This document shows positions 2,347-24,395 of a DNA stretch of 64,000 nt, in pieces. A program made the position numbers and the translations under genes. The stretch's first letter is position 1. Each line of letters opens with the position of its first letter. Under the pieces are notes generated by a model that was not told the origin of the DNA, did no database searches, and saw nothing but the letters and a program-made list of their open reading frames with translations. Origin of the DNA: a virus (lineage: Duplodnaviria; Heunggongvirae; Uroviricota; Caudoviricetes); IMG/VR virus record IMGVR_UViG_2571042390_000001. One strand, 5' to 3'.

Positions 2347-2919
2347 ATGCTGATTGGCTACATACGTGTGTCAACAAATGACCAAAACACAGATTTGCAA
2401 CGCAATGCATTAATGTGCGCAGGATGTGAACAGATTTTTGAGGACAAAATGAGCGGAACCAAGTCGGAACGACCAGGCCTGAAACGCGCTTTAAAGTGCC
2501 TTAAAAGAGGGGATACATTGGTGGTCTGGAAGCTGGATCGGTTGGGTAGAAGAATGAAACACCTCATTGCTCTCACAGAAGAGTTACGCGCAAAAGGTGT
2601 CAATTTTCGCAGTCTGACGGATTCAATCGATACCAGCACTCCGATGGGAAGGTTCTTTTTTCATATGATGGGTGCACTGGCAGAAATGGAGCGTGAACTG
2701 ATAGTTGAGCGCACGCTGGCAGGACTGGCTGCTGCGCGAGCACAAGGAAGAGTTGGAGGACGTCGCCCGAAACTGACGAAGGAGCAGCATGAGCAGATCG
2801 CAAGATTGCTCCAGAAAGGGTATGACAGAAAGCGGCTGGCAATTATCTATGATATTGGACTGTCAACGATCTACCGCTATCACCCTGTTGGGACTGTCAT
2901 AACGCAACCTGAAATGTAA
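2347..2919 (+). CDS. cin: Serine DNA invertase (Cin/Gin/Hin/Pin family)
   Basis: 190 aa starting MLIGYIRVSTNDQNTDLQRNAL with catalytic serine context and C-terminal HTH (GYDRKRLAIIYDIGLSTIYRY); RBS aagggag upstream of ATG 2347. Confidence 0.9.
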   Translation: MLIGYIRVSTNDQNTDLQRNALMCAGCEQIFEDKMSGTKSERPGLKRALKCLKRGDTLVVWKLDRLGRRMKHLIALTEELRAKGVNFRSLTDSIDTSTPMGRFFFHMMGALAEMERELIVERTLAGLAAARAQGRVGGRRPKLTKEQHEQIARLLQKGYDRKRLAIIYDIGLSTIYRYHPVGTVITQPEM

Positions 2920-3135
2920 TTCTTTTTCAAATAATGAAACGCCGCGTGGATGCCATTTATCGCACAAGATAGAGTGCATTTATCGCGCGGCGCATCATCA
3001 TTTGTTGATATGCGAATGTATCCAATAAGCATATGTCTCCCTTGTATGCTAAGGATACGATCCTAGAAGATGTCCTGTAAGGAAATAACAAACTGACTAA
3101 GTTAGTGGCGCATTAGATGTTATTTCTGGAGGGGT

Positions 3136-3462
3136 ATGTTTGCAGATTATGAAAATCTGGCTGTAGTAGTCATAACATCCCTACTAAGTGGAACCGGCGT
3201 ATTCCTTCTCGGAGTTAGAGACGGGCGCATTTCTGCGTCCCTGCTCAATCTTGCGAGTGAATTGTTTACTGCGGTAACAGCCGGGCTTGCGGGGTATGGG
3301 GTGGCGGTTAGCCAAGAATGGCCTGAAGGTATCATTTTCTGCGTTGTTCTGATTGCCAGTAACAACGGTAGTGAAATTTTACAGGGCTTGAAGTCCAGAG
3401 CTAGTTACGTCTTGAATCTCTTAAGCGTAATAGCGAATGGGGGAAAAGGTGGAGAGAAATAA
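3136..3462 (+). CDS. Holin-like membrane protein (LydA-like by size and position)
   Basis: 108 aa with three hydrophobic segments; first gene of a plus-strand operon after the invertase. Confidence 0.45.
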   Translation: MFADYENLAVVVITSLLSGTGVFLLGVRDGRISASLLNLASELFTAVTAGLAGYGVAVSQEWPEGIIFCVVLIASNNGSEILQGLKSRASYVLNLLSVIANGGKGGEK

Positions 3463-3908
3463 TGGGTAACTTTGGAAATTATTTCATTTTTATCATGGCA
3501 TTTGTTGCCATCATTGACCGTTTCATTTTTCGTCGCAAGAGTGTTGAGATTTTGAGTATTGGTGACGCTGTAGTGAAAGAATCCGCTATAGCATTTCCTG
3601 TTTCGCTACGTGTTAAGCGAAGCTGGGTCAGCAATGCTCAAATCGAATATTGGTTGCAAGACCTGAAAAATCCATCTGTGGTTATTTCAGGGAAAACGCG
3701 ACCAGTTGACGCCTCAAAACGCGGTGAGAGAGAAGAGTATTTGCTCATCGATACGAAATATCTTGAGCCAACGAAGTGGGATCTGAAAGTCACATTGACT
3801 AACGGTAACTGCCGACTGAATCCGCTTTATCGCATTTTCCCTATCAATGACTGCATAGAGCGCCAGTTTACGATCGAAAAGCGTAAAGGAGACTGGGATG
3901 TCAAATAA
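3462..3908 (+). CDS. Membrane-anchored protein (LydB/antiholin-like by position)
   Basis: 148 aa, N-terminal transmembrane segment; start overlaps upstream stop. Confidence 0.3.
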   Translation: MGNFGNYFIFIMAFVAIIDRFIFRRKSVEILSIGDAVVKESAIAFPVSLRVKRSWVSNAQIEYWLQDLKNPSVVISGKTRPVDASKRGEREEYLLIDTKYLEPTKWDLKVTLTNGNCRLNPLYRIFPINDCIERQFTIEKRKGDWDVK

Positions 3909-4518
3909 GAATAATTATGTTCTTCTTAATTATGATGAGTTAAACGAAAAGGGGCTGGCAAAACTCGTCAAAGAAATCAGCAAAGGTGGTTACAAGATAG
4001 CGAGGGTGATCCCTGCAAGTAATGGCAGGAAGAAAGATGGGATCATGACGCGCACGTTTACCCTTATTGGTATTGATGAACAGACAATGGAAGTTCAGGT
4101 TAACGATACCGGTGATATATCTGGGATCAAACTGAATGGTAAAACAGTACCGTTCAAGCCAGTAAAAACAATGTCGGCTTTGGGGCAATCTCTTGCGGCT
4201 TTATTTAATCGCGGAGCAACTTCTTTCCAGAAGTCATTAGCTCGAAAACTTGCTCGTGCAGCAAAAAATATTGATGACGGAAATAAGAAGCGGCAGGGAG
4301 TTAAATCTAACGCTCAGAAATTAGCTGAAGCGAAAGAATCACGTGATGCACTCCGTGAAGATATCGCTAATGCTAACGACAAACTGTCTAAACTCCAGAG
4401 CAAGTCAGACAAAGTAATGCAAGATACGGGTAACGTTAAAGCTGCCTTGTCTCAGGAAGTAGCTAAGACACGTGCTCTTAAAGAAGAAATCGCGCGCCTG
4501 GAGGATGAGCATGATTAA
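3898..4518 (+). CDS. Hypothetical coiled-coil protein (Hdf-like position in a dar-type operon)
   Basis: 206 aa, charged C-terminal half with heptad-like repeats. Confidence 0.5.
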   Translation: MSNKNNYVLLNYDELNEKGLAKLVKEISKGGYKIARVIPASNGRKKDGIMTRTFTLIGIDEQTMEVQVNDTGDISGIKLNGKTVPFKPVKTMSALGQSLAALFNRGATSFQKSLARKLARAAKNIDDGNKKRQGVKSNAQKLAEAKESRDALREDIANANDKLSKLQSKSDKVMQDTGNVKAALSQEVAKTRALKEEIARLEDEHD

Positions 4519-6436
4519 CAATCCTTTACGAATTAATATTCAGTCTACTTTTGCTGATACGATCCCCGGCTATGTGCCAAGTCGCTGGTCTTCAGAAGAA
4601 TTAAGCGAAGATGACCTGATTTTTGAGGCGGCGACCTTAGAAGATATTGAGCTTGCCTATATGGGCAATGAAATTCTGGTTGTGTCTGACGAAGCTATGT
4701 TTGAGTCCATAACTACAACCAGAATTCGGTTAGCTCAAACAATGCGAGCTTTCGTCCGTGCGCTGAATCGTGGCCTGAATGGTACGAATATTATGGCAGG
4801 GACTGATGAAGCCGGGACCGATGAAAATGGACGTAATTGTATTGGTGGTGCGATTATCGGTCGTGTACGTCGGGTAGCTAATATCCCTGTTTTGACCGCG
4901 CAGATACCGCTTACTGACGGGCAGAGTACAAGCATAATTTTCCACTCTCCAACAGCTGACGGGGCAAAAATAAAGAGTAACGACGAGCTTGTTGCATTTC
5001 AGTTTTTACTTAATAAGCGTAACGTAACTCACGTTGTCGCCCCGATTGGTGGGAGAGATGTTTCTTTAAGCCAGGTATGCCAGGCGCTATCTAATTTGAT
5101 TGAGCGTAACAGCGAAAAATTTAAGAAAGCAAAAGAGCGCCAGGACAAAATGAAGGCAGATATTGAGAGTTATCTCAATGAAGCAGATAAACTGGCAGAA
5201 GAACGGTCAATAATGATTGATCAGGTGGACGTTGCGCAACGTGGGCTGACTGAAAAGCGTGCTGCTCTTACGGAGATGCAAAAAAAACTTGATGCCCAGA
5301 AAGCCATCAACGAGGAATTACAAGAAAAACGCGATAAATTGTTGTCTGCTAAAGGTGAAAAAACGAAGGAACGAGCGTTTAGTGACCAGCTGCGACATGT
5401 AAAACATAATCTTGCCATTGACGGAAAAACAGTGCTGGATAATGGCGCTGAAGTTAATTATATCACGTCCGGCAGTGACAATTTCGTTACGATAGTAGCA
5501 CCTGAAGGTAAATTCAGTATTGATGCCAGTGCTGTCAAAGGAGGCAGTTTGGCAGATGCTGCAACCAAATTACTTAAAGCCTACCGAGAGCATAACGCAG
5601 ATAAATATAAAGTTGATGTGTTACCAGGCCAGCAGGAAGACCCCGAACCACCACAGACAGACCCCGAGACGAACCCAGTATCACAACCAGAGAGCCAGGA
5701 TGTAGGTAAATACCACTATGCACTTCAATCTCGCCCGGCTGGTGTTGGTGCTGTGCCGGATGGAAATAAAGCCGTGCTTGATCGTCCTGACCAGGCTGAT
5801 CAGTATTACGAATATGCTCGTCACGGTATCATTACGTATGACCGTAAACTGACAGATGAAGAAGTCAGCCAGTACGAGTTGCTCTATCTTCCTGATGAAG
5901 ATGAGCTGAAAGATTTTGCAGGCCAATTGGTTGTGTCCAGCATGTCGAAACATATTGATGGCTATGTAGACCTGTTTGGCAGTGACCTGAAAACATTCAA
6001 GGCGCAAGTGAAAATTCTTTTCCGCAAAGCGTTTCCAAACGTGGCGTATCCACTTGGTGATGGGGAGAACCTTTTCATTATGGACGTGTATAACGCCCTT
6101 CAAAATCATTCAAGCGAAGTAAAAACAGAGCATGTGGTTGAGCCGGAATCACAACCACAACCAGCACCAGAACAGGAGCCGGAGCCAGAAGAAGCTGGTG
6201 AATCAGCAAGTGAAGCTGATCAGGAGGCAGATAAAGCACTGGAGTACCTGAAATCCGTGCCGGAGCAGTTTACATCCCGCGATCTGACGGTCATCAGTGC
6301 TGAACTTGATCATGTGCAGGAAGCAGCAAACGCTCTAATCAGCGCAGGTCGATACGACGAGAACGAAGCCACTGTTGGTGCAGCAGTTGACTACCTGATC
6401 AACATTCTGGCTGAAATTCAGCAGGGAGGTGCTTAA
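4511..6436 (+). CDS. Large virion-type protein, DarA-like by size and operon position
   Basis: About 642 aa; GGAGG RBS 7 nt upstream of ATG 4511; coiled-coil core and Pro/Glu-rich linkers (EDPEPPQTDPETNPVSQPESQ, EPESQPQPAPEQEPEPEE). Confidence 0.5.
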   Translation: MINNPLRINIQSTFADTIPGYVPSRWSSEELSEDDLIFEAATLEDIELAYMGNEILVVSDEAMFESITTTRIRLAQTMRAFVRALNRGLNGTNIMAGTDEAGTDENGRNCIGGAIIGRVRRVANIPVLTAQIPLTDGQSTSIIFHSPTADGAKIKSNDELVAFQFLLNKRNVTHVVAPIGGRDVSLSQVCQALSNLIERNSEKFKKAKERQDKMKADIESYLNEADKLAEERSIMIDQVDVAQRGLTEKRAALTEMQKKLDAQKAINEELQEKRDKLLSAKGEKTKERAFSDQLRHVKHNLAIDGKTVLDNGAEVNYITSGSDNFVTIVAPEGKFSIDASAVKGGSLADAATKLLKAYREHNADKYKVDVLPGQQEDPEPPQTDPETNPVSQPESQDVGKYHYALQSRPAGVGAVPDGNKAVLDRPDQADQYYEYARHGIITYDRKLTDEEVSQYELLYLPDEDELKDFAGQLVVSSMSKHIDGYVDLFGSDLKTFKAQVKILFRKAFPNVAYPLGDGENLFIMDVYNALQNHSSEVKTEHVVEPESQPQPAPEQEPEPEEAGESASEADQEADKALEYLKSVPEQFTSRDLTVISAELDHVQEAANALISAGRYDENEATVGAAVDYLINILAEIQQGGA

Positions 6437-6804
6437 TGACCATCTCTGTTTTAGACCGCCTGAAATTAGGTAAAGAGCTATCAGATCTAATGCAGGCGCA
6501 GAAAACGGCGCCAGTATTGCAACGCGTCACCATTGGTAAGCAGATTGTTGATGTGATGCTGAAATTGGGCTTGGGGACTGCCGCGCAACCGGCAGCGGAA
6601 CCGCAACAACAGACTGATCCTGTTGTAGATGAAGTTCCTAAGATAGTGACTGACTTCCTGGGCGGTGTGTTCACAAAGTCCACACAAATGGAATTTATTG
6701 ATGCGCTGCGTGGGATCTCAAACTATGTTGGCGAGTTCCTTACGTTGGAACAGGCAAAAGAGCAGACCATAAGCTGGGTGAAAGCCAACGGTTATGCAGG
6801 GTAA
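6436..6804 (+). CDS. Hypothetical protein (DdrA-like position)
   Basis: 122 aa; ATGA start/stop overlap with upstream gene. Confidence 0.5.
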   Translation: MTISVLDRLKLGKELSDLMQAQKTAPVLQRVTIGKQIVDVMLKLGLGTAAQPAAEPQQQTDPVVDEVPKIVTDFLGGVFTKSTQMEFIDALRGISNYVGEFLTLEQAKEQTISWVKANGYAG

Positions 6805-6807
6805 TCA

Positions 6808-6833
6808 AAGGGGCTGAAATGCCCCTTTCACTT
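6808..6833 (+). terminator. Intrinsic terminator or attenuator hairpin inside the operon
   Basis: aaggggc-tgaaat-gcccctt followed by T-rich tract. Confidence 0.45.
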
Positions 6834-6897
6834 TCCTGTAAGTCCATAAATCACACACTTTTTACACTTCCTGCTTTCTATGTAAGGGGAGTGTATT

Positions 6898-9800
6898 TTG
6901 AACAAGTCAGTTACTTCCGCGCTATCCGAAGCAGCAGACATTAACAGTGTTATTGCGCTGGTTTCTTCATTAGAGAGGCGAGAAACACGCCAGGGGCGCA
7001 GTAGTTACGTAGTCACCAGTAAAGGGGCAGAGGTAAAGACGGCTTTTAAGGTCGTTGATGCCAGCAGTCTGATCATTTCGAACAACCTTGACGGTACGAT
7101 TAATCCGGCCTTCCCGGAAGAACTCCAGCCACGTGACCGTACACGGCTATCAAGCAAACTCCAGGTTAACCGTATTGCCTCCAATTTACGCCCGGCACAA
7201 TTAACGGATTCCGGCATGAGCAGCCACGGAGCGCCGATAGTTGGTCCGGACAACGTTGTTGAATCCGGCAACGGAAGGAGCATGGGTATCTGGCGTGCCT
7301 ATGAGCAAGGGCAGGCGGATGAATATCGCCAGTACCTGATCGATCATGCAAAAGAGTTTGGTCTGAATCCTGACGACATTTCACAAATGTCTATGCCCGT
7401 ATTGGTGCGAGAAAGACTCACAGATGTAGACCGCGCACAATTTGCCCGCGATTCAAACATCAGCGATCTGCAAGAGATGGCTGCAAGTGAAAAAGCGTAT
7501 GCGGATGCGCAATTTCTCACTGAGAGCGTCATGGCGCTATTTAATCCTTCAGATGATGGAAATCTACTGGCGCGGTCCAATGATGCGTTTATTCGTGCGT
7601 TTTTGCGCGAAATAGGTGATACGGCGACGGCAGGTTTGCTTACTGCCGATGGGCGTCCAACGAAACAACTTATCGACCGCATCCAGAATGCAATTTTTGC
7701 CAAAGCGTACAAGGATGAAAGGCTTGTTCGGCTGGTGGCGGAAGAGCCAGATCCGGAAATGCGTAACATTCTTACCGCATTAAATACGGCAGCCAGCGAT
7801 TTTGCGCAAATGCAGTCGCTTTCAGGTGATGTTCACCATGACACGGTAACCGGACTGGTAGACGGTATAGAGCAATTGAATGGTCTGGATAAACAGGCTA
7901 TTGCCGCGCTACAGGAAGCAATTAACCTTGTTCGTGAAGCAAAAGATAACGGTCAGGCAGTAGAAGAGGTGATCGCACAGCGTGGATTGTTTGGAGATAG
8001 CACTCCGGAAGCAGAAGCGCTTGCTCTGTTTATTGTTGCCAACAACCGAAGCGCTAAGCGAATGGGGGCAGCTTTCAAGAAACTGGCGCAAAAAATTAAC
8101 GATGAACTTATTCACCAGCAACAAGCGTTAGGCGATATGTTCGGCGGCGGAGATGTCGATCTGCGTAGCATTTTATCTGCCGTTTCTGATGAAATTGAGG
8201 CTGAGTATGGCGAAGGTAAAGGGCTTAATTTCGCCATGTTTGAATCGGTTTCAGGAGAGGTCGAACCATACATTTCAAAGCTAATTGCTGATGCGACCAG
8301 CGTGGAGGACTTGATCCGAATCGTGAAGGTGTCAGAAAAAATTAAGGAGTCCGCAAAAAAAATAAAGCGCAATGTATTTTTGGAACTTGGTTTTTATATT
8401 CGCAATGTCACCGTTAATGAGATTAAGGAGTGGGCTAAACGTTATGGATACAGCGACGCTGTGTTAACAACGATGTTATTGTCTTATCAACGCAGCAATT
8501 TTTATGCTAACGCACTGCGTGACGCGATTGAAAAAGGAGATGAAGCTCCTTCGCTCGCAGATGAAAGAAATATTGATTGTGATATTGAAACGTTTTGCAA
8601 CATATCAGAAGAAGGCGTGCCCGCTGAACAATTTATACGTGTTTTACATAATGCAGCAAAACATATTCCTGATGACTTTAGTATTGATGAATTGCGCAAT
8701 GGTTGTCTTGTTTGGTTAGGTAACTATTTAAAATCTCCAGCGTCTATTGCAGAGAAAACAGCTTTAAGATTTAGAAAGGAAATGAATAAAGCTGGAAGCG
8801 CAGAAGAGATGGTGTGCATAATCCAAAATACTTTGAAGTTATTCAAAAAGAGCTTGCATAATATCGACGATATTATGGCGGCTGGTAGGAAAATAACAGC
8901 CAGTGTCGGAGTTAGCTCTGAACTAACGGCAGAGGAGATCGCTGATGCGTATATTGAGACACTTGTCAGGCTTAAGGAGATAGTGGAATTAGCAGAGCAT
9001 TCCTCATATTACGGAATCAAGGAGCGTGTTGACTTTACTATAGAACAAATCAATAAAGTTAGGTCAAATAAGGAAAAACTCACTGACTACCTTGCTGAGG
9101 TTTTGCACCAGAATGATCATGGGATTGGATATGATCTGAAAAAAATGCTTGTTTTTAATCTGGACATACCGGAAGACTTGCAAGCAGAACTATATGAAAT
9201 AGCTTCATTAACACGTGGACAAAAAGCCTATCCTAATGCGCTTGAAAATGTAGTACATAAAAAAGTCAGAGCCGCATTTGACATGATTCTTGAATCGTCA
9301 AATGTGTCACATGACCAGTCTAAGGAATGGAGTCGTGGGATTGCTATTTCTGATGAAGCAGAGCAGTTAAGTGGTCACGATAATGAAACTTTCTCCCGTA
9401 AAGCATACAGTATTCGCGAGACGATTGAAAAAGCCTATATTATTTCAGGAGGGACTTTATCTACATTAAAAAATATTAACCACAAGAACAATGTTCGTGC
9501 TTTTGCAAGTCGAAATGGGAATATAACAATTGATGCTAATAGTGATCACGAGCGTGTATTATGGCATGAAATAGGTCACCATATAGAACATTCAAATCCC
9601 CATCTATTGGAGAGGGCCAAAGCCTTCATTAAATCAAAAACTAACGGTAAAGTTTCTTATCATAATATTGGTAGCCGTGGCAGTGCTGAGTATTTGGTGC
9701 GAACCGACCTAAGTCATGGATATATGTCTAAAATTTATATGGAAAATACGGTAAGTTCTGTCAGCGGCAGATTTATATCAAAGCCACCTGCATTAAGCAA

Positions 9801-9939
9801 TTGCAGGGCGACTGAGATTTTTTCTATGGCCTTGCAGATGTATGCCGATCCGGAGCAGGCGACTAACTCTGTATTAAACAATGACGGCGTGCTGGAATTT
9901 TTCTTGGGATGTATGAAGGAGTTGCAAAATGAAGTATAG
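6898..9939 (+). CDS. Large protein with C-terminal HExxH zinc-metallopeptidase-like motif (DdrB-like position)
   Basis: 1013 aa; TTG start after RBS aagggga; motif ERVLWHEIGHHIEHSN near the C-terminus. Confidence 0.6.
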   Translation: MNKSVTSALSEAADINSVIALVSSLERRETRQGRSSYVVTSKGAEVKTAFKVVDASSLIISNNLDGTINPAFPEELQPRDRTRLSSKLQVNRIASNLRPAQLTDSGMSSHGAPIVGPDNVVESGNGRSMGIWRAYEQGQADEYRQYLIDHAKEFGLNPDDISQMSMPVLVRERLTDVDRAQFARDSNISDLQEMAASEKAYADAQFLTESVMALFNPSDDGNLLARSNDAFIRAFLREIGDTATAGLLTADGRPTKQLIDRIQNAIFAKAYKDERLVRLVAEEPDPEMRNILTALNTAASDFAQMQSLSGDVHHDTVTGLVDGIEQLNGLDKQAIAALQEAINLVREAKDNGQAVEEVIAQRGLFGDSTPEAEALALFIVANNRSAKRMGAAFKKLAQKINDELIHQQQALGDMFGGGDVDLRSILSAVSDEIEAEYGEGKGLNFAMFESVSGEVEPYISKLIADATSVEDLIRIVKVSEKIKESAKKIKRNVFLELGFYIRNVTVNEIKEWAKRYGYSDAVLTTMLLSYQRSNFYANALRDAIEKGDEAPSLADERNIDCDIETFCNISEEGVPAEQFIRVLHNAAKHIPDDFSIDELRNGCLVWLGNYLKSPASIAEKTALRFRKEMNKAGSAEEMVCIIQNTLKLFKKSLHNIDDIMAAGRKITASVGVSSELTAEEIADAYIETLVRLKEIVELAEHSSYYGIKERVDFTIEQINKVRSNKEKLTDYLAEVLHQNDHGIGYDLKKMLVFNLDIPEDLQAELYEIASLTRGQKAYPNALENVVHKKVRAAFDMILESSNVSHDQSKEWSRGIAISDEAEQLSGHDNETFSRKAYSIRETIEKAYIISGGTLSTLKNINHKNNVRAFASRNGNITIDANSDHERVLWHEIGHHIEHSNPHLLERAKAFIKSKTNGKVSYHNIGSRGSAEYLVRTDLSHGYMSKIYMENTVSSVSGRFISKPPALSNCRATEIFSMALQMYADPEQATNSVLNNDGVLEFFLGCMKELQNEV

Positions 9940-10222
9940 CATTGTGAGTCCCGCTGGGATTAGAGGGATTGTTGAATGCTCTGATGACGGCACATTGCGT
10001 ATATTTGAAGGCGATATTTCGGAAGAAAATATTGCGCAAGATTTACGCTTTATCAACACAAATTCCGCAATGGGGATCGTGAATACCATTCATGCCGATG
10101 GGGTGTTTGTTCTGCGGAGCCTGGAAACTGTTGGCTGGGAGGTTGAGTGGCCAGAGGTGGAAGGAGATCCTGACGACGAAGACGATACTGGCGAATCATA
10201 TCAAGACATTGATGTGAATTGA
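9929..10222 (+). CDS. Hypothetical acidic protein
   Basis: 97 aa, start overlaps upstream stop; acidic C-terminus (EGDPDDEDDTGESYQDIDVN). Confidence 0.45.
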   Translation: MKYSIVSPAGIRGIVECSDDGTLRIFEGDISEENIAQDLRFINTNSAMGIVNTIHADGVFVLRSLETVGWEVEWPEVEGDPDDEDDTGESYQDIDVN

Positions 10223-10235
10223 TATGATTGATAAT

Positions 10236-10258
10236 CCCGCCGTCAGGCGGGTTTTTTT
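10236..10258. terminator. Bidirectional intrinsic terminator
   Basis: cccgcc-gtca-ggcggg followed by TTTTTTT; lies between convergent genes. Confidence 0.65.
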
Positions 10259-10520
10259 AGCGTGGTGTAAGAATAAATTCAGGATGCTCTCCAGCAAGCA
10301 ATAACAGGTACTCAAATTCACCAGCCATAAGGCGTCTCGGTTTATTTCTATCTTCTTTGAATTGCCAAGCCCGGAGTTGATACCCCATTTTGTGGGCTAA
10401 CTCCGTTTGCGTTAGCCCCATTCGCTGGCGGATTTCAATTATAGTTTCCGGGGTGTTTGGTGGGAGTTGTTTCACAATATGCCCTTTGCCAATGCTGTGA
10501 TTCGCAACGAAGTATATCAT
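10257..10520 (-). CDS. XRE-type HTH DNA-binding protein
   Basis: 87 aa; HTH segment RMGLTQTELAHKMGYQLRAWQFKE; 12 bp downstream of partner gene. Confidence 0.6.
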   Translation of the reverse strand: MIYFVANHSIGKGHIVKQLPPNTPETIIEIRQRMGLTQTELAHKMGYQLRAWQFKEDRNKPRRLMAGEFEYLLLLAGEHPEFILTPR

Positions 10521-10532
10521 CGTTGAATCGAT

Positions 10533-10835
10533 TCACAGAGCTGCGCCGAATAGACCGCAGCATGGCATCCCTTCATCACAGTACCTGGCCCATTCTTTTT
10601 GGCATTCTTCTGTTTGCGCGTATTGGCTTAACGCGTCATCCAGCATATCCCAGGCCTTATAGGAATCCTCTGCAACGCTAAACAAAGTCCTGCCTTCCCG
10701 GCTTAGAATTTGCAGATTGTAAATGTTTTCATTGCTCAGACATGCGCGGCTGATATGCATGTAAACCGACCATGCAGGAACTCGATTTTTGATAGCAAGT
10801 TGGTGTAATTTGGAATTAATTAAAGAGCTTTTCAT
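10533..10835 (-). CDS. Hypothetical small protein, partner of the HTH gene
   Basis: About 100 aa from ATG 10835 with RBS GGAGAA; Cys-rich C-terminus (CDEGMPCCGLFG). Confidence 0.5.
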   Translation of the reverse strand: MKSSLINSKLHQLAIKNRVPAWSVYMHISRACLSNENIYNLQILSREGRTLFSVAEDSYKAWDMLDDALSQYAQTEECQKEWARYCDEGMPCCGLFGAAL

Positions 10836-11018
10836 GGGATTTCTCCGCAGCAAAGTGGTCAACTTTTTCAATCTTAATGCGCACAATGTGCATATTCAAG
10901 TTTTATTCTTCACTTTGTTACGAGAGGGGCCAGCCAATATTTCTAGTTGAAAAGATCCATCATCAAAAATCACATACTGATTATGCTGCCGCAAACTGAA
11001 AACATTTCGCGGTGACTC

Positions 11019-12701
11019 ATGGCAACGAAAGACAAAAACAAAGGCTTTCTGTCGGCATTGAAGAAAGCCTTCAACAGTGGCGATGTCACGCCTGCCGATC
11101 CGGTCGTTTTTACGAGCGGTCATAGTGTCGTTGCGCGTTCTGGTCTGTCCGCTTTACGTCCGGGGATACTGGGTGGCAATAGCGATGGCATGACAAGCGC
11201 GGCAGATACAGTATCAATTTCGGCAGAACTGCCCGGCGACCGCCTGCAAAAGTACAACATCCTGGAAACGATGGCTAAAAGCCCGACTATCTCGACGGCT
11301 TTAAATATTCACATTGCACATGCGCTTGCGCCTTCAAAAAAAACCGGACAAGCATTCATCCTTTCGCCAAAGGATGGTTCCGATGCCGAGGCAGTAAGTA
11401 GATGTGAAGAGTTAACCGCTGATTTGGGGACGATGATTAATGACGGACTTCCTTCATGGGCCATGATTATGGCGATCTTTGGGGTGTCTTATGTCCGACC
11501 TTATGCTGAACAGGGCAGGGGGATAACAGGCATTGAGTCCAGTTATTACACTCTGCCACACTTCGTCCAGGAGTTTTATCGTGGTAGCCAGCTGGTAGGT
11601 TTCAGTGGTGATTACATTCTGGATACGCATAGTTTGCGCAGAGTAATAACCGAACCGTGGAATCTGGTTTCCATGAAAAATCCCTATTGGACGCCACAGC
11701 ATAAAGTTATTCCGGTTAGCTACGGCACAAAAGGGTACTCACTGTTAAGTGATCAGGCTGATAAGCCGTTAATGGAGACGCAGAATTACGGAACTTCATT
11801 CCTGGAATACAGCTATGAACCTTACCTTAATTTATGTGCTTCGCTCGCCGCGCTGAAATCAACGCGAAATAATGCAGCCAAAATTGACCGCCTGATTGCT
11901 CTTACGACGAACACACTGGACCCGGTTAATGCGGCGAACTATACGCGTGGCGTCAGCCAGGCATTGAAGCGTCATAGTGACCTGGTGGCGCAAAGGTCGA
12001 TTAATGCCAACGCTATTCCGACTGTGCTTAACCATCTGATACCTGTTATGGGAGACGGGAAGAACGGCATCACCATTGATACGCAATCCATACCCGCAGA
12101 TATCAGTGGTATCGAAGACGTTATGTTTCACCTCCGGCAGCTTGCTGCAAGCCTCGGCATTGACGCAACAATGCTTGGCTGGGCTGATCAGATGAGCGGA
12201 GGGCTTGGAGAAGGCGGCTGGCAGCAAACTGCTATCCAGGCTGCATTGCGTGCGAACTGGATCAGACAGGCCGCCCAGCGAACTATTTATCGGCTTCTGG
12301 ACATTCACCTCGCTTATAAATACGGCAAGGTTTACACCGAAACAAACCGCCCTTATGACGTGCAATTCAACTCAATGAACACAGCTATCCAGGAAGAGGA
12401 AAACCGAGAACTGGATGCACGCGCCAACTTTGTTGCTGTCATCTCCCAAATTATGGACCAGATCCAGAACAACCCGAAACTGGCTGGTAGCGACGCGTTT
12501 ATGCGTTATCTGTTCACTGAGCAGTTGCACATCGACGATGACACTCTCAACACCATGATCAAAGAGTTTAAGGCGAATGAATCAGAGCAAAACAACGAGC
12601 ATGGTATGTACGAATCCGCGCCGTTGTCGTCCGGTGACGATCCGGAAAACTGGACGCCAGAACAGTTAATAAACTTTGCAAAATTTGTGATGAGCAATTA
12701 A
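11019..12701 (+). CDS. Hypothetical head-morphogenesis protein, possibly portal
   Basis: 560 aa; size, acidic C-terminus and position directly before a putative head-processing gene; no diagnostic motif verified. Confidence 0.4.
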   Translation: MATKDKNKGFLSALKKAFNSGDVTPADPVVFTSGHSVVARSGLSALRPGILGGNSDGMTSAADTVSISAELPGDRLQKYNILETMAKSPTISTALNIHIAHALAPSKKTGQAFILSPKDGSDAEAVSRCEELTADLGTMINDGLPSWAMIMAIFGVSYVRPYAEQGRGITGIESSYYTLPHFVQEFYRGSQLVGFSGDYILDTHSLRRVITEPWNLVSMKNPYWTPQHKVIPVSYGTKGYSLLSDQADKPLMETQNYGTSFLEYSYEPYLNLCASLAALKSTRNNAAKIDRLIALTTNTLDPVNAANYTRGVSQALKRHSDLVAQRSINANAIPTVLNHLIPVMGDGKNGITIDTQSIPADISGIEDVMFHLRQLAASLGIDATMLGWADQMSGGLGEGGWQQTAIQAALRANWIRQAAQRTIYRLLDIHLAYKYGKVYTETNRPYDVQFNSMNTAIQEEENRELDARANFVAVISQIMDQIQNNPKLAGSDAFMRYLFTEQLHIDDDTLNTMIKEFKANESEQNNEHGMYESAPLSSGDDPENWTPEQLINFAKFVMSN

Positions 12702-12714
12702 CCGGAGGGAAATA

Positions 12715-13713
12715 ATGCAATCACTGAATACTGTTACGGATCGCTTCTCCCTGGTAGAGAAAATCCGCAAACACACACCGCAGAACAACCGAAATTACGT
12801 CATTCAGTCGGTACGAGACACATTCAACTCGCCAGAAACAAAAGAGCGTATCGCGCTGGGTGAGATGTATGGTTATTACGGTCATGGTCGCCGGGCGATG
12901 CACTATAACAAAACGAAAAGCCTGAACTTGCCGGAAGTCTCTGTTGTGATGGTAGATGGGAAGCCTGTTGTATTGGAGAACGTGCCGTCAAACAGGACTA
13001 TCGACATTTCGATTGACGACAACGGCATTGTTACTCATACGCAGGAAATACTGGATACAGACACCGGGCGTATTGTTCAGGGCATGATTAATTCTGGTGC
13101 TGGTGGTTGGTCGTGGGCTACATCTGGTCCAGATTCATCGGTATCCCTGGTAAAGTCTTTCCACGGCTTTGATTACGTAACTGTGCCTAACTATATCAGC
13201 CTCGACAAGAAAAGCCTGATGCTTGAATCAGCAGAAGAGCGCGATGCGGCTATTCATGCAGCACTTATCGAACAAGGTTTTACCGATAACGCTGCTACGG
13301 ATCTGGTTCACCACTTTTCAGCAATGAAAAATCAGCAAGCCATGCTCGAATCTGCACATCGTGAAGCCCTGGAATCAGAATTGATGCTCCTTGAAGTGGA
13401 AAACATACAGCTTCGAGATAAGCTGCGCGCTCAAACAGCGATGATGGAAAGCCAGGGGGAAAATGCAAAGCAATACCGCCGGATTTTGCGTGAAGCTATC
13501 CAGGAAATGCCTGTTTTTATCAGCGCAGAACAGCGCCGGGCGCTCTGCCGTATGCAGTCTGAAGATGATGCCCGCATAGTGGCTGCGATGCTTGAATCTC
13601 TTGGGGCAAATGCTACTTATGGCTTACCGGTATCAGGCAAGAAAGAACCAGAGTTATCACCGAAGGAGAACAAAAACACTACCCCGTTACTCTTCGTTTC
13701 CAGAAGGGGGTAA
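12715..13713 (+). CDS. Hypothetical protein, possibly prohead protease or scaffold
   Basis: 332 aa; coiled-coil C-terminal half; tightly follows the 560-aa gene. Confidence 0.4.
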   Translation: MQSLNTVTDRFSLVEKIRKHTPQNNRNYVIQSVRDTFNSPETKERIALGEMYGYYGHGRRAMHYNKTKSLNLPEVSVVMVDGKPVVLENVPSNRTIDISIDDNGIVTHTQEILDTDTGRIVQGMINSGAGGWSWATSGPDSSVSLVKSFHGFDYVTVPNYISLDKKSLMLESAEERDAAIHAALIEQGFTDNAATDLVHHFSAMKNQQAMLESAHREALESELMLLEVENIQLRDKLRAQTAMMESQGENAKQYRRILREAIQEMPVFISAEQRRALCRMQSEDDARIVAAMLESLGANATYGLPVSGKKEPELSPKENKNTTPLLFVSRRG

Positions 13714-13727
13714 TCGCCTTGTTAAGT

Positions 13728-13745
13728 TAAATTTCTAACATAGTG
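13728..13745. promoter_or_regulatory. Copy of dispersed operator-like motif (TTTCTAACA core)
   Basis: aaatttctaacatagtg; member of a family of at least 14 intergenic sites. Confidence 0.5.
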
Positions 13746-13827
13746 TATTTATATACACTGTTGATCCTGGTGGATGGGATCGAGTAGGATCGCGGTCACT
13801 GCTCCGGTAGCGACTGCCAAAAAAGCA

Positions 13828-13851
13828 AAAGCCGCTTCTCAGCGGCTTTTT
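13828..13851 (+). terminator. Intrinsic terminator
   Basis: agccgct-tctc-agcggct followed by TTTTT. Confidence 0.65.
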
Positions 13852-13913
13852 GGGTGTATAAATCCACTGCCATAGATTTATACGGTAGATAGATTTTTTC
13901 ACGGAACTATCTG

Positions 13914-14876
13914 GTGAGTATTTTAAATTCAGTTTCAGTAACTTTCAACACTTCTGAGTATAAAAACAACACTGAATACCACAAAAAAATCAAAGGTCAT
14001 CAGTTGAGTTTTTTTGCTCGTCATAGCGGTCTTCTTTCCCCTTCACATAGCGCCATTATTGCCGAGTTCGCCAACCTGGCAGGGTCTACCGATGAATACA
14101 TGATCCGTCGCTCATATGCTGATATGTCCGAGATTACAGGACGCAGTATTTCTACTGTGCGCCGGGCATTTGCTGAAGCGACGAAGTGCGGAATGCTTGT
14201 TAAGCAACATCAGGTAGCGAATAACAATGCCCAGGTGTGTAACGTATATCGGTTTACGACACAATTTCTCCACTTCATTCATGTAGCAATGGAGATAGGG
14301 GGTAAGCAGGGCATCAAATTTGCCAACGCCACAAAACTGGTTAAGCAGTTGATTTCAAAGGTTCGTTATTTTTTTGAAACTGGGAACCCCCTGTTCAAAT
14401 TGAACAAGTCCCCCCATGTTCAAAATGAACAGCCAATAGAAAATAAGAGTCACTCTATAGCCAAAAGAAGAGAAAGATCATGCGCGGTTCAGCCAAAGGC
14501 TTCACCTGCAGATAGTTCTCAAACGGATAACGGGGTACTGGATAAAAAACCAGTAATCAGGGAAGAACATACCAACCACTGCCTGGCGGCGGCAAAAGCG
14601 AGAGCTGCAAAGCGTCGTTCAGACGAGGGGCACGCAAAACGGCAGGCTCTGTATCGTACCGCTGAAAATCTGGCAAAAAAATTTGCATGGATACGTAGTG
14701 CCGCTACCGCAGTGAATAAGCCTAAACAATCCAGTGCCCTAGATTTCTCAATGGATTATTCTGGCTCCCAGGGGTGTGCAACCATTGGTGAAGCCTTTGA
14801 CCTGATGAAACAGCGTGGCTATCGGTCTGAATTTGACCGTGAGGATTGGTCAATCCCTGCGGGATTTAGGGGATGA
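13914..14876 (+). CDS. Hypothetical protein with HTH-like segment; start uncertain
   Basis: 320 aa from GTG 13914; segment ITGRSISTVRRAFAEATKCGML resembles a DNA-binding helix-turn-helix. Confidence 0.45.
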   Translation: MSILNSVSVTFNTSEYKNNTEYHKKIKGHQLSFFARHSGLLSPSHSAIIAEFANLAGSTDEYMIRRSYADMSEITGRSISTVRRAFAEATKCGMLVKQHQVANNNAQVCNVYRFTTQFLHFIHVAMEIGGKQGIKFANATKLVKQLISKVRYFFETGNPLFKLNKSPHVQNEQPIENKSHSIAKRRERSCAVQPKASPADSSQTDNGVLDKKPVIREEHTNHCLAAAKARAAKRRSDEGHAKRQALYRTAENLAKKFAWIRSAATAVNKPKQSSALDFSMDYSGSQGCATIGEAFDLMKQRGYRSEFDREDWSIPAGFRG

Positions 14877-14928
14877 CCTGTGTGTCTACAAAACATCCCA
14901 ATGATCGGAAAATGCTCGGCCGATTATT

Positions 14929-14963
14929 TATGTTAGAAAATTAATTTGCTGTTTCTAAAACGG
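14929..14963. promoter_or_regulatory. Pair of divergent operator-like motifs upstream of the first icd/ant module
   Basis: atgttagaaaattaatttgctgtttctaaaacgg: one TGTTAGAAA and one TTTCTAAAA copy 11 bp apart. Confidence 0.5.
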
Positions 14964-15289
14964 AATGTATGATCTGCATCATCGACTGAAGTCATCCATT
15001 GCTGAAATTTTTAGTTGATCTTCCATGTTTTCAGGCTTATATTCATGCCGTCGTAGCAAATTCTGCGACCGGGTTTGACAGCCTGAATGTTAGTGCGGAC
15101 AACCGCAGATTTCCGATATTGCGGTATTTTTGTGTCCGTAAACCGCGTTACGCCCGAATTATGGTGGGGCGTGATGGGGAGGCTTCGGCCTGCTGGTTTC
15201 ACTAACGCCAGTCTGTCAACCCTGTCACGTCCTGCCACCTGTTTGACAGCGGGTGGCAGGTTGTTAAACCTGTTAGTGAGGCCGTAACT

Positions 15290-15514
15290 ATGGTTAATGC
15301 CAATCCTTGCTCACGTCCAGAATTCATCTGGCGTTTCCACTCCCTGCAAAAACGCTGCGATCACTTCGCAATTGCCGCAACCGAAAAAGAAGCCCGTTCT
15401 CTGATCCCTGATCAGCATGGTGTTCTTACTGGTCGTTTCTCTACTTCCCCACAACCAAACACTAATCCCTGGTATCGCAATATTACCAATCCCGGCATTG
15501 CGGAGGCTCACTGA
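15290..15514 (+). CDS. icd: Icd-like small protein (copy 1)
   Basis: 74 aa; shares FIWRF, AATE and EARS segments with the 71-aa ORF at 55564-55779; directly precedes an antirepressor-like gene. Confidence 0.5.
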   Translation: MVNANPCSRPEFIWRFHSLQKRCDHFAIAATEKEARSLIPDQHGVLTGRFSTSPQPNTNPWYRNITNPGIAEAH

Positions 15515-16221
15515 TGGGTATCTGCATTCTCGAAAAACTATCAATGACCAGCATTGAGATTGCGGAGCTGGTGGGAAGCCAACACTCTGACGTTAAACGT
15601 AGTATTGAGCGTATGGTTGCTCGAAGCATTATCCGAAAACCGCCAATGGCTGTTTTCGAAAAAATCAATAACTTAGGATTGCGTCGTGGCGTTGAGGCTT
15701 ACGTCTTCGAAGGCGAGCAAGGCAAACGAGACAGCATCATTGTCGTCGCGCAGCTCTCTCCCGAATTCACCGCCCGGCTGGTGGACCGCTGGCGCGAACT
15801 GGAAGAACAAGTACGCCAGCCGTTGACCGAAATAGAGATGATCGCTGCAATGGCTGCGAATGCAGTTCAGCAGCAAAAGCTGATTCATGCTGTTGAGTCA
15901 AAGGTTAGCCAGGTCGCTGAAACCGTCGAGCAAATAAAGAAAGGCAATATTCCGGAAGGCTACATTGGCTACCGCCAGTTGGCGGCGAAATGCGGCCTGA
16001 CTGAAGCCAAATGCCGAAACCTTGTCAACGCTTACCGGATTCCCACCGATACACATGAGTTTTTGACTCCAGAGGGGGTATTGTCGCGTCGTTCCATCGT
16101 GGCCTTATCTCCCTTCATGAATGCTTTTAACCGGATGATGTCGGAGGCTGAACACCGAGGAAAACGCTGGTATCACCCCAAAATGGGGCAATTCCAGGTG
16201 ATCGGTTGGGGAGGTGAGTGA
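15514..16221 (+). CDS. ant: Antirepressor-like protein (copy 1)
   Basis: 235 aa; N-terminus MTSIEIAELVGSQHSDVKRSIERMVA; C-terminal segment EGYIGYRQLAAKCGLTEAKCRNLVNAYRIPTDTHEFLTPEG nearly identical to 55779-56720. Confidence 0.7.
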   Translation: MGICILEKLSMTSIEIAELVGSQHSDVKRSIERMVARSIIRKPPMAVFEKINNLGLRRGVEAYVFEGEQGKRDSIIVVAQLSPEFTARLVDRWRELEEQVRQPLTEIEMIAAMAANAVQQQKLIHAVESKVSQVAETVEQIKKGNIPEGYIGYRQLAAKCGLTEAKCRNLVNAYRIPTDTHEFLTPEGVLSRRSIVALSPFMNAFNRMMSEAEHRGKRWYHPKMGQFQVIGWGGE

Positions 16222-16418
16222 TGGACATCATGCAGGCGGTAAAAAAAATCAGGGAAGGACAGGCTGAAGTGTGCCGCCGTAAAGCATGGAGTGTTGGTGT
16301 ATGGGCCTGGCCTGATAATTACTCTACTACCGGATGGTTTTGTATTAATGGACTCCAGATCCGGGAAGTTGATTTATCGACGGCTGATATAGTCGGTAAT
16401 GATTGGATCGTGACTTGA
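16221..16418 (+). CDS. Small DUF2829-like protein, split from the antirepressor by a TGATG junction
   Basis: About 65 aa; motifs CRRKAW and DIVGNDWIV match the C-terminal extension that is fused in frame in the second ant copy. Confidence 0.5.
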   Translation: MDIMQAVKKIREGQAEVCRRKAWSVGVWAWPDNYSTTGWFCINGLQIREVDLSTADIVGNDWIVT

Positions 16419-16426
16419 AGCGTGAT

Positions 16427-16452
16427 GCCCCGGCCTGGCCGGGGCTTTTTTC
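16427..16452. terminator. Bidirectional intrinsic terminator
   Basis: gccccgg-cctgg-ccggggc followed by TTTTTT. Confidence 0.7.
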
Positions 16453-16936
16453 ATGCCTCATTAGTTGAGGTTGCTGCGTCTCCGACTGGTAACAGGGCGG
16501 TATTGCGTGGTTCGCCAGCAGGCCAGCGATAGCCAGACACTCTTGATGTTGGGAATGCGCGAATATTAACCGCATCCCCCTGGTTCCCACCCAGGACAAG
16601 CAGATCGCCATTGGCGCGGCGTCCGACAACGAAGCCTACGTGCCCACCGCCTACGCGGGTAAATACAACGATACATCCGTATGCCGGTGTATCTAATTTC
16701 TCGCCCCAATCCAGATAGGATTTTGCCGACTCAAATCTTGTTGAGCGAATGCCTACACGTTCCAGCATTGCACCGACAAATGCTGCGCACCACGGCGTTT
16801 CATCGTCTTTAATTCCGCCGCGCTTGATGTCGCGCCAGAACTGAACGATTTCAGGGTTGTGTTTAGCGCCTTTTATTTCAGTCAAGCCAATGTGCTTACG
16901 GGCTTCAATTAGCCAGCGAGGTTCAATGTTTGCCAT
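16451..16936 (-). CDS. Putative papain-like (CHAP / NlpC-P60-like) peptidase
   Basis: 161 aa; candidate catalytic Cys in TPWCAAFVGAM and His in GGGHVGFVVG. Confidence 0.45.
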   Translation of the reverse strand: MANIEPRWLIEARKHIGLTEIKGAKHNPEIVQFWRDIKRGGIKDDETPWCAAFVGAMLERVGIRSTRFESAKSYLDWGEKLDTPAYGCIVVFTRVGGGHVGFVVGRRANGDLLVLGGNQGDAVNIRAFPTSRVSGYRWPAGEPRNTALLPVGDAATSTNEA

Positions 16937-17087
16937 ATTTTTCTCCCGGTCATGGGTTAATAAGTAGGCAAACTATGGGGAGTATGTGATTTTGACGGTA
17001 GTATCGTCCCCCTGAAAATAACATTCTCCATACCCTCTCAACCGTACCGCATAGCGGAATTTTTTACGGTTTAGAGGGGGAAATCCT

Positions 17088-23960: not shown

Positions 23961-24395
23961 ATGACGACATTAATTGACACTGTAAAACCGACGGAATCCT
24001 ACCTTGAGGACATTTTGCCGCAGGCGCTCAATGGCAGGAGTGAAGAGGCGTTTCTGGATGCATATCTGAATGGCATGGTGGAAAGGCTGAAACGAGATCC
24101 ACAGCTTTATCACCTTTATGGGCCGTGGTGGCCTGCGCTTAAAACGTTATTGCTGGAGCGCGGCGACATATCATTTGGACAAGTTGTAGATAGTGATGTG
24201 GCAGAGATCTACAAAATGAGTCGCCCGGCGCTTACGGTTTTGGCTGGGCATCTGTATTCGAGCGATCGCCTGGAAAATGACGCGGTATACAATCCTGTTC
24301 ATGCTCTGGAAGTCGCACCTTATGCCGATGATACAGAGCCATACGTGTACACAAGTTACGACGAGTCTATAGAGAAATATCGAATTATGGGGTAG
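23961..24395 (+). CDS. Hypothetical protein
   Basis: 144 aa, follows darB-like gene with RBS aaggag. Confidence 0.5.
   Translation: MTTLIDTVKPTESYLEDILPQALNGRSEEAFLDAYLNGMVERLKRDPQLYHLYGPWWPALKTLLLERGDISFGQVVDSDVAEIYKMSRPALTVLAGHLYSSDRLENDAVYNPVHALEVAPYADDTEPYVYTSYDESIEKYRIMG

Follow-up and report, generated by a model that had tools for sequence, protein, structure and literature searches.

The closest described relatives of the locus treated here are the late darA operon of phage P1 and its counterpart in phage D6. Mass spectrometry finds Hdf, DarA, DdrA, DdrB, DarB, and Ulx in P1 virions (PMC9024508). Cryo-electron microscopy places 55 DarA–Hdf pairs on the inner capsid at the penton–hexon junctions, where they contact DNA; the pairs are absent from emptied heads, and loading of the other Dar proteins comes later and requires the pairs (PMC12810830). 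Dar protection acts in cis only, for co-packaged DNA, against type I systems and BREX (PMC12707154), and the dar genes are non-essential for plaques on a permissive host (PMC10695390). The subject of this study is positions 3136–10222 of a 64,000-nucleotide stretch of viral DNA (IMG/VR record IMGVR_UViG_2571042390_000001), the whole of which is called the window. Taking the two statements jointly, we hold it to be very probable that this segment is a late darA operon, lydA-lydB-hdf-darA-ddrA-ddrB-hxr, and that the zincin peptidase domain of its DdrB is genuine.

DdrB has been suspected of being a peptidase before. The P1 GenBank record calls it a “possible metallopeptidase”, one phage record gives ddrB as “putative metallopeptidase”, and Iyer and colleagues described in 2017 the C-terminal MPTase domain of P1 DdrB, a “polyvalent protein” (PMC5512222). 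According to that report, processing trims the P1 protein to ~76 kDa ahead of its packaging, and the MPTase was predicted to be responsible, with the N-terminal ParB fragment left in the head (PMC5512222). The peptidase idea is therefore not new, as both the P1 record and Iyer and colleagues (PMC5512222) precede the present account.

The darA operon of a D6-group phage-plasmid

The source element belongs to the D6 group of P1-like phage-plasmids of E. coli; it is a temperate P1/D6-like myovirus kept as a plasmid. Phage D6 shares 96.4% nucleotide identity with window positions 2998–8243 and 96.8% with 10967–17855, and the E. coli plasmid p95_MLI121 (NZ_CP117014.1) is 99.9% identical across the whole stretch. 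What could be read directly from these sequences was homology, gene order, domain content, fold, residue conservation, and the six Dar genes. A scan for open reading frames (ORFs) finds seven co-oriented genes on the plus strand between 3136 and 10222, with products given in amino acids (aa):

3136–3462, plus strand: lydA, holin, 108 aa (phrog_1527, E=2e-38; 43% identity to P1 LydA, 99% to D6)
3462–3908, plus strand: lydB, LydA-holin antagonist, 148 aa (Pfam LydB, E=1e-24; phrog_1898, E=6e-69)
3898–4518, plus strand: hdf, 206 aa, DarA_N domain and coiled-coil tail (Pfam DarA_N, E=8e-18; phrog_1620, Hdf-like, E=1e-76; 9ukm_H, E=3e-25)
4511–6436, plus strand: darA, internal head protein, 641 aa (DarA_N, E=5e-40; DarA_C, E=9e-19; anti_RE_DarA; 9ukm_I, E=6.5e-124)
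6436–6804, plus strand: ddrA, 122 aa (phrog_1855, DdrA-like anti-restriction, E=5e-50; 33% identity to P1 DdrA)
6898–9939, plus strand: ddrB, 1013 aa, TTG start (phrog_2299, full-length DdrB family; 44% identity to P1 DdrB)
9929–10222, plus strand: ortholog of P1 hxr, 97 aa, isoelectric point (pI) 4.05, modeled as a small alpha/beta protein with a disordered acidic tail

Amino-acid identity of the seven products to P1 is, in order, 43, 34, 40, 39, 33, 44, and 41%. The first six are 93–99% identical to D6, from which the seventh gene is absent. The D6 RefSeq record (NC_050154) annotates genes similar to P1 lydA, lydB, hdf, darA, ddrA, and ddrB, and the P1 record has the identical gene order followed by hxr. 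DarA scores 1152 bits against the NCBIfam equivalog anti_RE_DarA (NF052326; cutoff 350), DarA and Hdf match chains 9ukm_I and 9ukm_H of a 2026 cryo-electron microscopy structure of the P1 head in the Protein Data Bank (PDB), and the match of LydA to Pfam Phage_holin_3_3 is below the family cutoff. The likeness in size and order to the P1 lydA-lydB-darA operon that a preliminary description of this DNA had pointed out is thus one of true homology and matching gene order, and the comparison with P1 Hdf, DarA, DdrA, and DdrB that it proposed finds similarity for all four.

Several details of that description can be refined. Its co-oriented genes of 206, 122, 1013, and 97 aa are all present in the ORF scan within the span it gave, and its 642-aa gene is present too but becomes one of 641 aa, since darA most plausibly starts at the ATG at 4511, preceded by GGAGG and chosen by RefSeq in the near-identical plasmid as well. 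The two holin-like genes it placed ahead of the run are the holin LydA and, in second place, not a holin but LydB, the antagonist of LydA. The run of overlapping genes that it saw is real at lydA/lydB (1 nucleotide, nt), lydB/hdf (11 nt), hdf/darA (8 nt), darA/ddrA (1 nt), and ddrB/hxr (11 nt), overlaps typical of translational coupling, but does not extend to ddrA and ddrB, where a 93-nt spacer forms the sole non-overlapping junction of the operon.

A second Dar locus lies downstream:

17088–23924, plus strand: darB homolog, 2278 aa with an SNF2-type helicase region, trans-acting partner (Pfam SNF2-rel_dom; collinear at 97% with orf15 of D6, which is described there as “similar to P1 gene darB”)
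23961–24374, plus strand: ulx homolog directly 3' of darB (tblastn with P1 Ulx: 46% identity over 138 aa, E=8e-39)

With these homologs of darB and ulx besides the dar operon, all six recognized Dar genes (Hdf, DarA, DdrA, DdrB, DarB, and Ulx) are therefore present in the window, as judged by homology.

The P1 darA operon matches gene for gene, all seven being alike in order and orientation, with products of closely similar length (window/P1, in aa: 108/109, 148/147, 206/203, 641/639, 122/121, 1013/995, and 97/102). Also common to the two are the domains, the 11-nt ddrB/hxr overlap, and the position of darB and ulx elsewhere in the genome. The differences lie at the margins and in one junction. 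The ddrA-ddrB spacer is 93 nt with a hairpin in the window and 12 nt in P1; unlike P1, the window has no lydC upstream; the upstream invertase gene is co-oriented with the operon in the window and divergent in P1; and the downstream neighbors are an XRE-like gene and a hypothetical gene, in place of isaB and IS1 in P1.

If P1 is a guide, the products would work as follows. The holin LydA and its antagonist LydB would set the timing of lysis, and homology with the solved P1 virion would place the remaining products inside the capsid. There, Hdf and DarA would pair on the inner capsid surface at penton–hexon junctions and touch the DNA, with DarA as the platform; the two would be needed to load DdrA, DdrB, and, from the second locus, DarB and Ulx. 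This cargo would exit the head with the DNA and shield that DNA in cis from type I restriction. It is from the P1 work that we infer the virion location, loading order, and anti-restriction phenotype of the window proteins.

A candidate promoter, a hairpin, and a terminator flank and interrupt the operon:

3099–3118, plus strand: candidate late (Lpa-type) promoter, box AAGTTAGTG, with 7 of 9 bases matching the P1 LPdar -22 box AAGTTACTT
6807–6828, plus strand: hairpin AAAGGGGC-TGAAAT-GCCCCTTT in the ddrA-ddrB spacer (-15.1 kcal/mol, z=-2.7)
10236–10258, plus strand: strong intrinsic terminator closing the operon, CCCGCC-GTCA-GGCGGG then T7

The -22-like box of the candidate promoter occupies 3099–3107 and is followed by a weak -10, ~20 nt upstream of lydA. 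The spacer hairpin, a stable GC stem, is possibly a partial terminator or an RNA-stability element, which could reduce expression of ddrB and hxr relative to darA or stabilize the upstream transcript. It falls inside a stretch 96% identical to D6, at a place where the P1 spacer is only 12 nt.

Upstream of the operon, a Cin-type invertase gene (2347–2919, plus strand) has ~69% DNA identity to cin of D6 and P1, both of which are on the opposite strand. The tail-fiber and invertible-segment region at 1–2245 differs from D6, to which similarity starts at 2998. Just upstream of darB and on the opposite strand is a gene for a CHAP-domain protein (16451–16936, minus strand), annotated in D6 as “baseplate hub subunit and tail lysozyme” and without an equivalent at that place in P1.

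Architecture of DdrB and its zincin domain

The 1013-aa protein aligns with P1 DdrB end to end (residues 4–1011) at 44% identity, which is unevenly spread over three regions:

6898–8244, plus strand: ddrB N-terminal module, aa 1–449, with a ParB domain and a conserved helical region (65% identity to P1, 97% to D6)
8245–9267, plus strand: ddrB hypervariable middle, aa 450–790 (24% identity to P1)
9268–9939, plus strand: ddrB C-terminal domain, aa 791–1013, predicted zincin metallopeptidase (41% identity to P1; HEIGHHIE at nt 9565–9588 and TEIFSMA, containing E973, at nt 9811–9831)

The DdrB-type ParB domain occupies aa 42–173 (nt 7021–7416), carries a GNGR motif, and matches Pfam ddrB-ParB with E=1e-41. 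The N-module, ParB-like and predicted to be of NTP-binding or nuclease type, is the sole part of DdrB kept by D6. Nine other DdrB orthologs show the same three-rate profile, the middle being without detectable similarity in several, and this is often so even among orthologs with N-modules 60–80% identical. The C-half of ddrB (nt 8244–9936) has a G+C content of 39.1%, against 49.4% in the N-half. DdrB may be pictured as a three-part polyvalent protein, with its ParB-like N-module, a fast-evolving middle, and a zincin peptidase at the C-terminus that appears catalytically intact.

The C-terminal HEIGHH zinc-peptidase motif that the preliminary description had singled out sits at residues 890–895 (nt 9565–9582). 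An exhaustive HMMER search of representatives with DdrB residues 780–1013 gave 164 clusters, and conservation was read from an alignment of 103 diverged homologs sharing 22–55% identity, in which the motif residues are conserved. R867, H890, E931, Y942, and E973 are 100% conserved; E891, H894, and E897 are 99% conserved; Y947 and S976 follow at 96% and 94%. The AlphaFold2 (AF2) model of the domain is confident (predicted local distance difference test, pLDDT, 91.2) and puts HExxH within helix 105–120. A zincin fold is found for the HExxH segment, the closest folds being anthrax lethal factor and the Pro-Pro endopeptidases. A candidate for the third zinc ligand is the invariant E973, at the start of helix 195–201, with E897 and E931 equally conserved.

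By its modeled fold the domain is nearest to the M34 type, whose members anthrax lethal factor and PPEP-1/2/3 are its best structural matches, and it is no sequence-level member of the curated peptidase families. In both, the HExxH helix is followed downstream by a conserved Tyr, which stands shortly ahead of a conserved Glu borne on a later helix. In anthrax lethal factor and PPEP-1 the catalytic Tyr stands 7 residues before the zinc-binding Glu. A spacing of 4–5 residues from Y947 to E973 is found in most members of the family, whereas the clade of P1 and the window has an insertion of 24–25 residues there.

This insertion, absent in most relatives, is one of two observations that would fit a fortuitous HExxH, or a decayed and inactive domain with a structural or packaging role only. 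The other is that the window and P1 DdrBs match no curated peptidase model in Pfam or NCBIfam at E<=1. Both weigh little against the 99–100% conservation of H890, E891, H894, E897, E931, Y942, and E973 among 103 sequences at 22–55% identity, and against a confident zincin-like model that puts the motif on a helix; a fortuitous or dead motif is very improbable. We conclude that the DdrB C-terminus is a genuine zincin domain and probably an active one.

The polyvalent proteins of Iyer and colleagues (PMC5512222) share with the window DdrB the fusion of a DdrB-type ParB domain to a HExxH domain at the C-terminus, in a late or virion phage protein, and homologs occur with MuF, InPase, ADP-ribosyltransferase (ART), and DarA_N domains. 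In 55 of the proteins matched in the present search, a Pfam scan likewise shows fusions of the domain with ddrB-ParB, Phage_Mu_F, InPase, Portal_Mu, DarA_N, and ADP-ribosyltransferase domains, the mark of the polyvalent proteins. A 1378-aa DdrB variant with the order ParB-InPase-ParB-peptidase, preceded by hdf- and darA-like genes (locus L010, 3001–7137; contig of JGI 3300050195), illustrates domain accretion in the variable middle region.

Other searches with DdrB gave little. A phmmer search of the whole protein against the PDB returned no match. A PDB profile search from an alignment was uninformative, its matches being to profile positions from other parts of the full-length rows and to dynein and myosin chains, and Pfam matches to SRP19, ANAPC5, Band_7_1, and DUF2250 were disregarded, all lying below cutoffs. 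An antisense ORF of 141 aa (7344–7769, minus strand) lies inside ddrB, where P1 has iddB. P1 and D6 keep this frame open, and in the more distant locus L005 it is closed; it is probably not a gene but a by-product of the sense frame.

Full-length and truncated ddrB alleles

D6 is 96–99% identical to the window from lydA to ddrB codon 449 and again from the portal gene on. Between the two the similarity breaks sharply, at 8243/8244 (codon 449 of ddrB), and resumes at 10967. The D6 DdrB ends five codons past the break, at 454 aa, and has neither the middle region nor the peptidase; in most D6-like plasmids, too, DdrB is cut short, at around residue 452. In D6 the intervening segment is 1.1 kb (13266–14375 of locus L001) and encodes a DUF4145 protein and a small hypothetical protein; in the window it is 2.7 kb (8244–10966) and holds the ddrB middle and peptidase, hxr, and two minus-strand genes. 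The full-length allele is present in 3 of 119 plasmids matching the region and in 5 of 5426 complete E. coli genomes. Since all distant P1-like loci examined keep a full-length ddrB and the small downstream gene, hxr, the truncated ddrB of D6 looks like the derived state.

The two minus-strand genes (10257–10520 and 10533–10886) lie between the operon terminator and the portal gene and converge on the operon. One encodes a weak XRE/HTH_3-like protein, of which the PGAP annotation gives a 54-aa version, and the other a hypothetical protein without a family. A 46-nt stretch at ~10277–10322 recurs at 91–93% identity in genes labeled “transcriptional regulator” on over 300 conjugative plasmids.

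The full-length allele is misannotated in the near-identical plasmid. RefSeq/PGAP marks ddrB of NZ_CP117014.1 (77684–79033; 3185–4534 of locus L007) as a pseudogene, “incomplete; missing C-terminus”, covering the N-terminal 450 codons only. The ~1.7 kb left unannotated is the part that encodes the middle region and the zincin domain, and the 1013-codon frame is intact in both NZ_CP117014.1 and the window. We flag this pseudogene call as an annotation error.

The same junction invites another history, in which the ddrB C-half, hxr, and the two minus-strand genes (8244–10966) were recently imported as a cassette from another P1-like lineage, making the 1013-aa protein a recombinant chimera in place of the ancestral D6-group gene. 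The sharp break at 8243/8244 with resumption at 10967, the fall in G+C from 49.4% to 39.1% at the junction, and the rarity of the allele among D6-like plasmids and complete E. coli genomes would all be in line with such an import. The identity profile itself speaks against it: in all full-length DdrBs compared, the N-module is conserved at 60–80%, the middle diverges strongly, and conservation of the peptidase is moderate, a uniform pattern from which it follows that rate heterogeneity alone explains the profile. The closest donor found is, moreover, only 50–55% identical, and the full-length ddrB and hxr at all distant P1-like loci make the D6 form the derived one. Recent import is somewhat less likely than not.

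Proposed self-processing or delivery, and Hxr as a possible partner

In the proposed mechanism, the DdrB peptidase would cut DdrB itself within the variable middle, and the N-module would be packaged and ejected. By analogy with the processed P1 protein, self-cleavage is the most likely role of the peptidase, to which we give an even chance. Several points weigh against this picture of the operon and its DdrB. Self-processing by the peptidase is a prediction, even in P1. In P1, proteolysis of DarA accompanies head maturation, and the phage has a prohead protease, Pro, which could therefore also cleave DdrB. The peptidase half is absent from D6 and from most D6-like plasmids, and the peptidase is therefore dispensable in the D6 lineage, where the N-module is independent of it. 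The mass-spectrometric coverage of P1 DdrB is 59.5% of the full length, from which the packaged part is not identifiable (PMC9024508); peptide positions are not listed in the supplement on the virion, so packaging of the peptidase part cannot be read from it. All function is carried over from P1 at 33–44% protein identity. Finally, the late promoter is a weak match, its loose pattern occurring once in the window against 0.55 occurrences expected by chance.

The preliminary description had hinted at a proteolytic activity delivered with the DNA. In its explicit form, the DdrB peptidase would be an injected effector that enters with the DNA and cleaves a host defense protein, for example a restriction subunit, instead of or besides DdrB. 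The strong purifying selection on the catalytic residues would suit this role, as would the hypervariability of the region just upstream, a trait expected of a target-recognition surface in an arms race, and the closest folds, those of anthrax lethal factor and the Pro-Pro endopeptidases, which are specific endopeptidases that are secreted or injected. Other MPTase-bearing proteins (N4 vRNAP, ArdC, and TraC1) are transferred uncleaved (PMC5512222), and 59.5% coverage of P1 DdrB is high if only ~70% of the protein is packaged (PMC9024508). Set against these points, P1 DdrB in heads is reported as a processed fragment of ~76 kDa (PMC5512222), and P1 ddrB is non-essential, with a described role in aiding DarB incorporation (PMC9024508, PMC10695390). 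Most D6-like plasmids, and D6 itself, do without the peptidase, and the effector would be one without a known substrate. Delivery as an effector is therefore unlikely. A protease delivered with the DNA goes beyond the evidence and has less support than self-processing before packaging.

The last gene of the operon is the hxr ortholog. The 97-aa product is 41% identical to P1 Hxr (E=3e-16) and matches phrog_2292 with E=2e-39. Hxr is annotated in the P1 record as “possible repressor; homolog of Xre”, but neither the 97-aa product nor P1 Hxr matches any of the helix-turn-helix (HTH) models. The AF2 model of Hxr (pLDDT 82) has a beta-beta-beta-alpha-alpha-beta domain and a disordered acidic tail, not an all-helical fold of the HTH_3 type. 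On both grounds, the annotation as an Xre-type repressor lacks support.

The distribution of hxr follows that of the peptidase. Its family is a narrow one of 24 clusters, and every one of them comes from P1-like elements of Enterobacterales. In PLSDB an Hxr-like gene is found in 502 records and the peptidase domain in 513, nearly the same set of plasmids, and the two abut in the records that list coordinates of both. D6 has lost hxr along with the peptidase half. A small acidic ORF (pI 4.05–4.2) overlaps the ddrB stop codon in all eight of the diverged ddrB lineages examined, with homology to Hxr confirmed in six (P1, the window, L004, L005/L006, L008, and L009). The alignments of L004 and L005/L006 are weak, at 19–24% identity, and L010, where the acidic ORF after ddrB is 134 aa long, and L012 give a weak match only. 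A motif, G[WFY]xVEWP, is common to several of these small ORFs, those of L009 and L012 among them. In L012 only the C-terminal part of ddrB remains, behind an insertion sequence (IS), yet the small acidic ORF is kept. In L009 (3001–6182; Logan contig of SRR26886992), ddrB and hxr are flanked by a divergent DnaB helicase gene on one side and a Rep3 replication gene on the other, and adjacent hdf, darA, and ddrA are absent; the arrangement suggests that the two genes can exist as a unit separable from the rest.

From its position and conservation, Hxr may be read as a conserved, translationally coupled partner of every peptidase-bearing ddrB examined. It would be translated in coupling with DdrB and would probably act with the C-terminal half of DdrB. 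A more specific proposal, doubtful as it stands, is that Hxr is not a repressor but a dedicated partner of this half, such as a stoichiometric inhibitor or a chaperone that silences the zincin until head assembly, or else a seventh Dar component that has so far escaped notice. Hxr goes unnamed in the main text of the paper on the P1 virion proteome (PMC9024508). The role of Hxr and self-cleavage are both speculative.

The main outcome, that a plasmid prophage of the D6 group carries a complete P1-type Dar system, was expected, as equivalents are already annotated in D6 and P1. The system itself is known from P1, and the fresh points are limited to the re-interpretation of Hxr and the natural pair of full-length and truncated DdrBs. 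Two annotation errors are flagged along the way, Hxr as an “Xre homolog” and the full-length ddrB allele as a RefSeq pseudogene. The rare window allele with its full-length DdrB and the common D6 allele with its peptidase-less DdrB make up a natural near-isogenic pair, which is usable to ask what the peptidase and Hxr add to anti-restriction and cargo loading.

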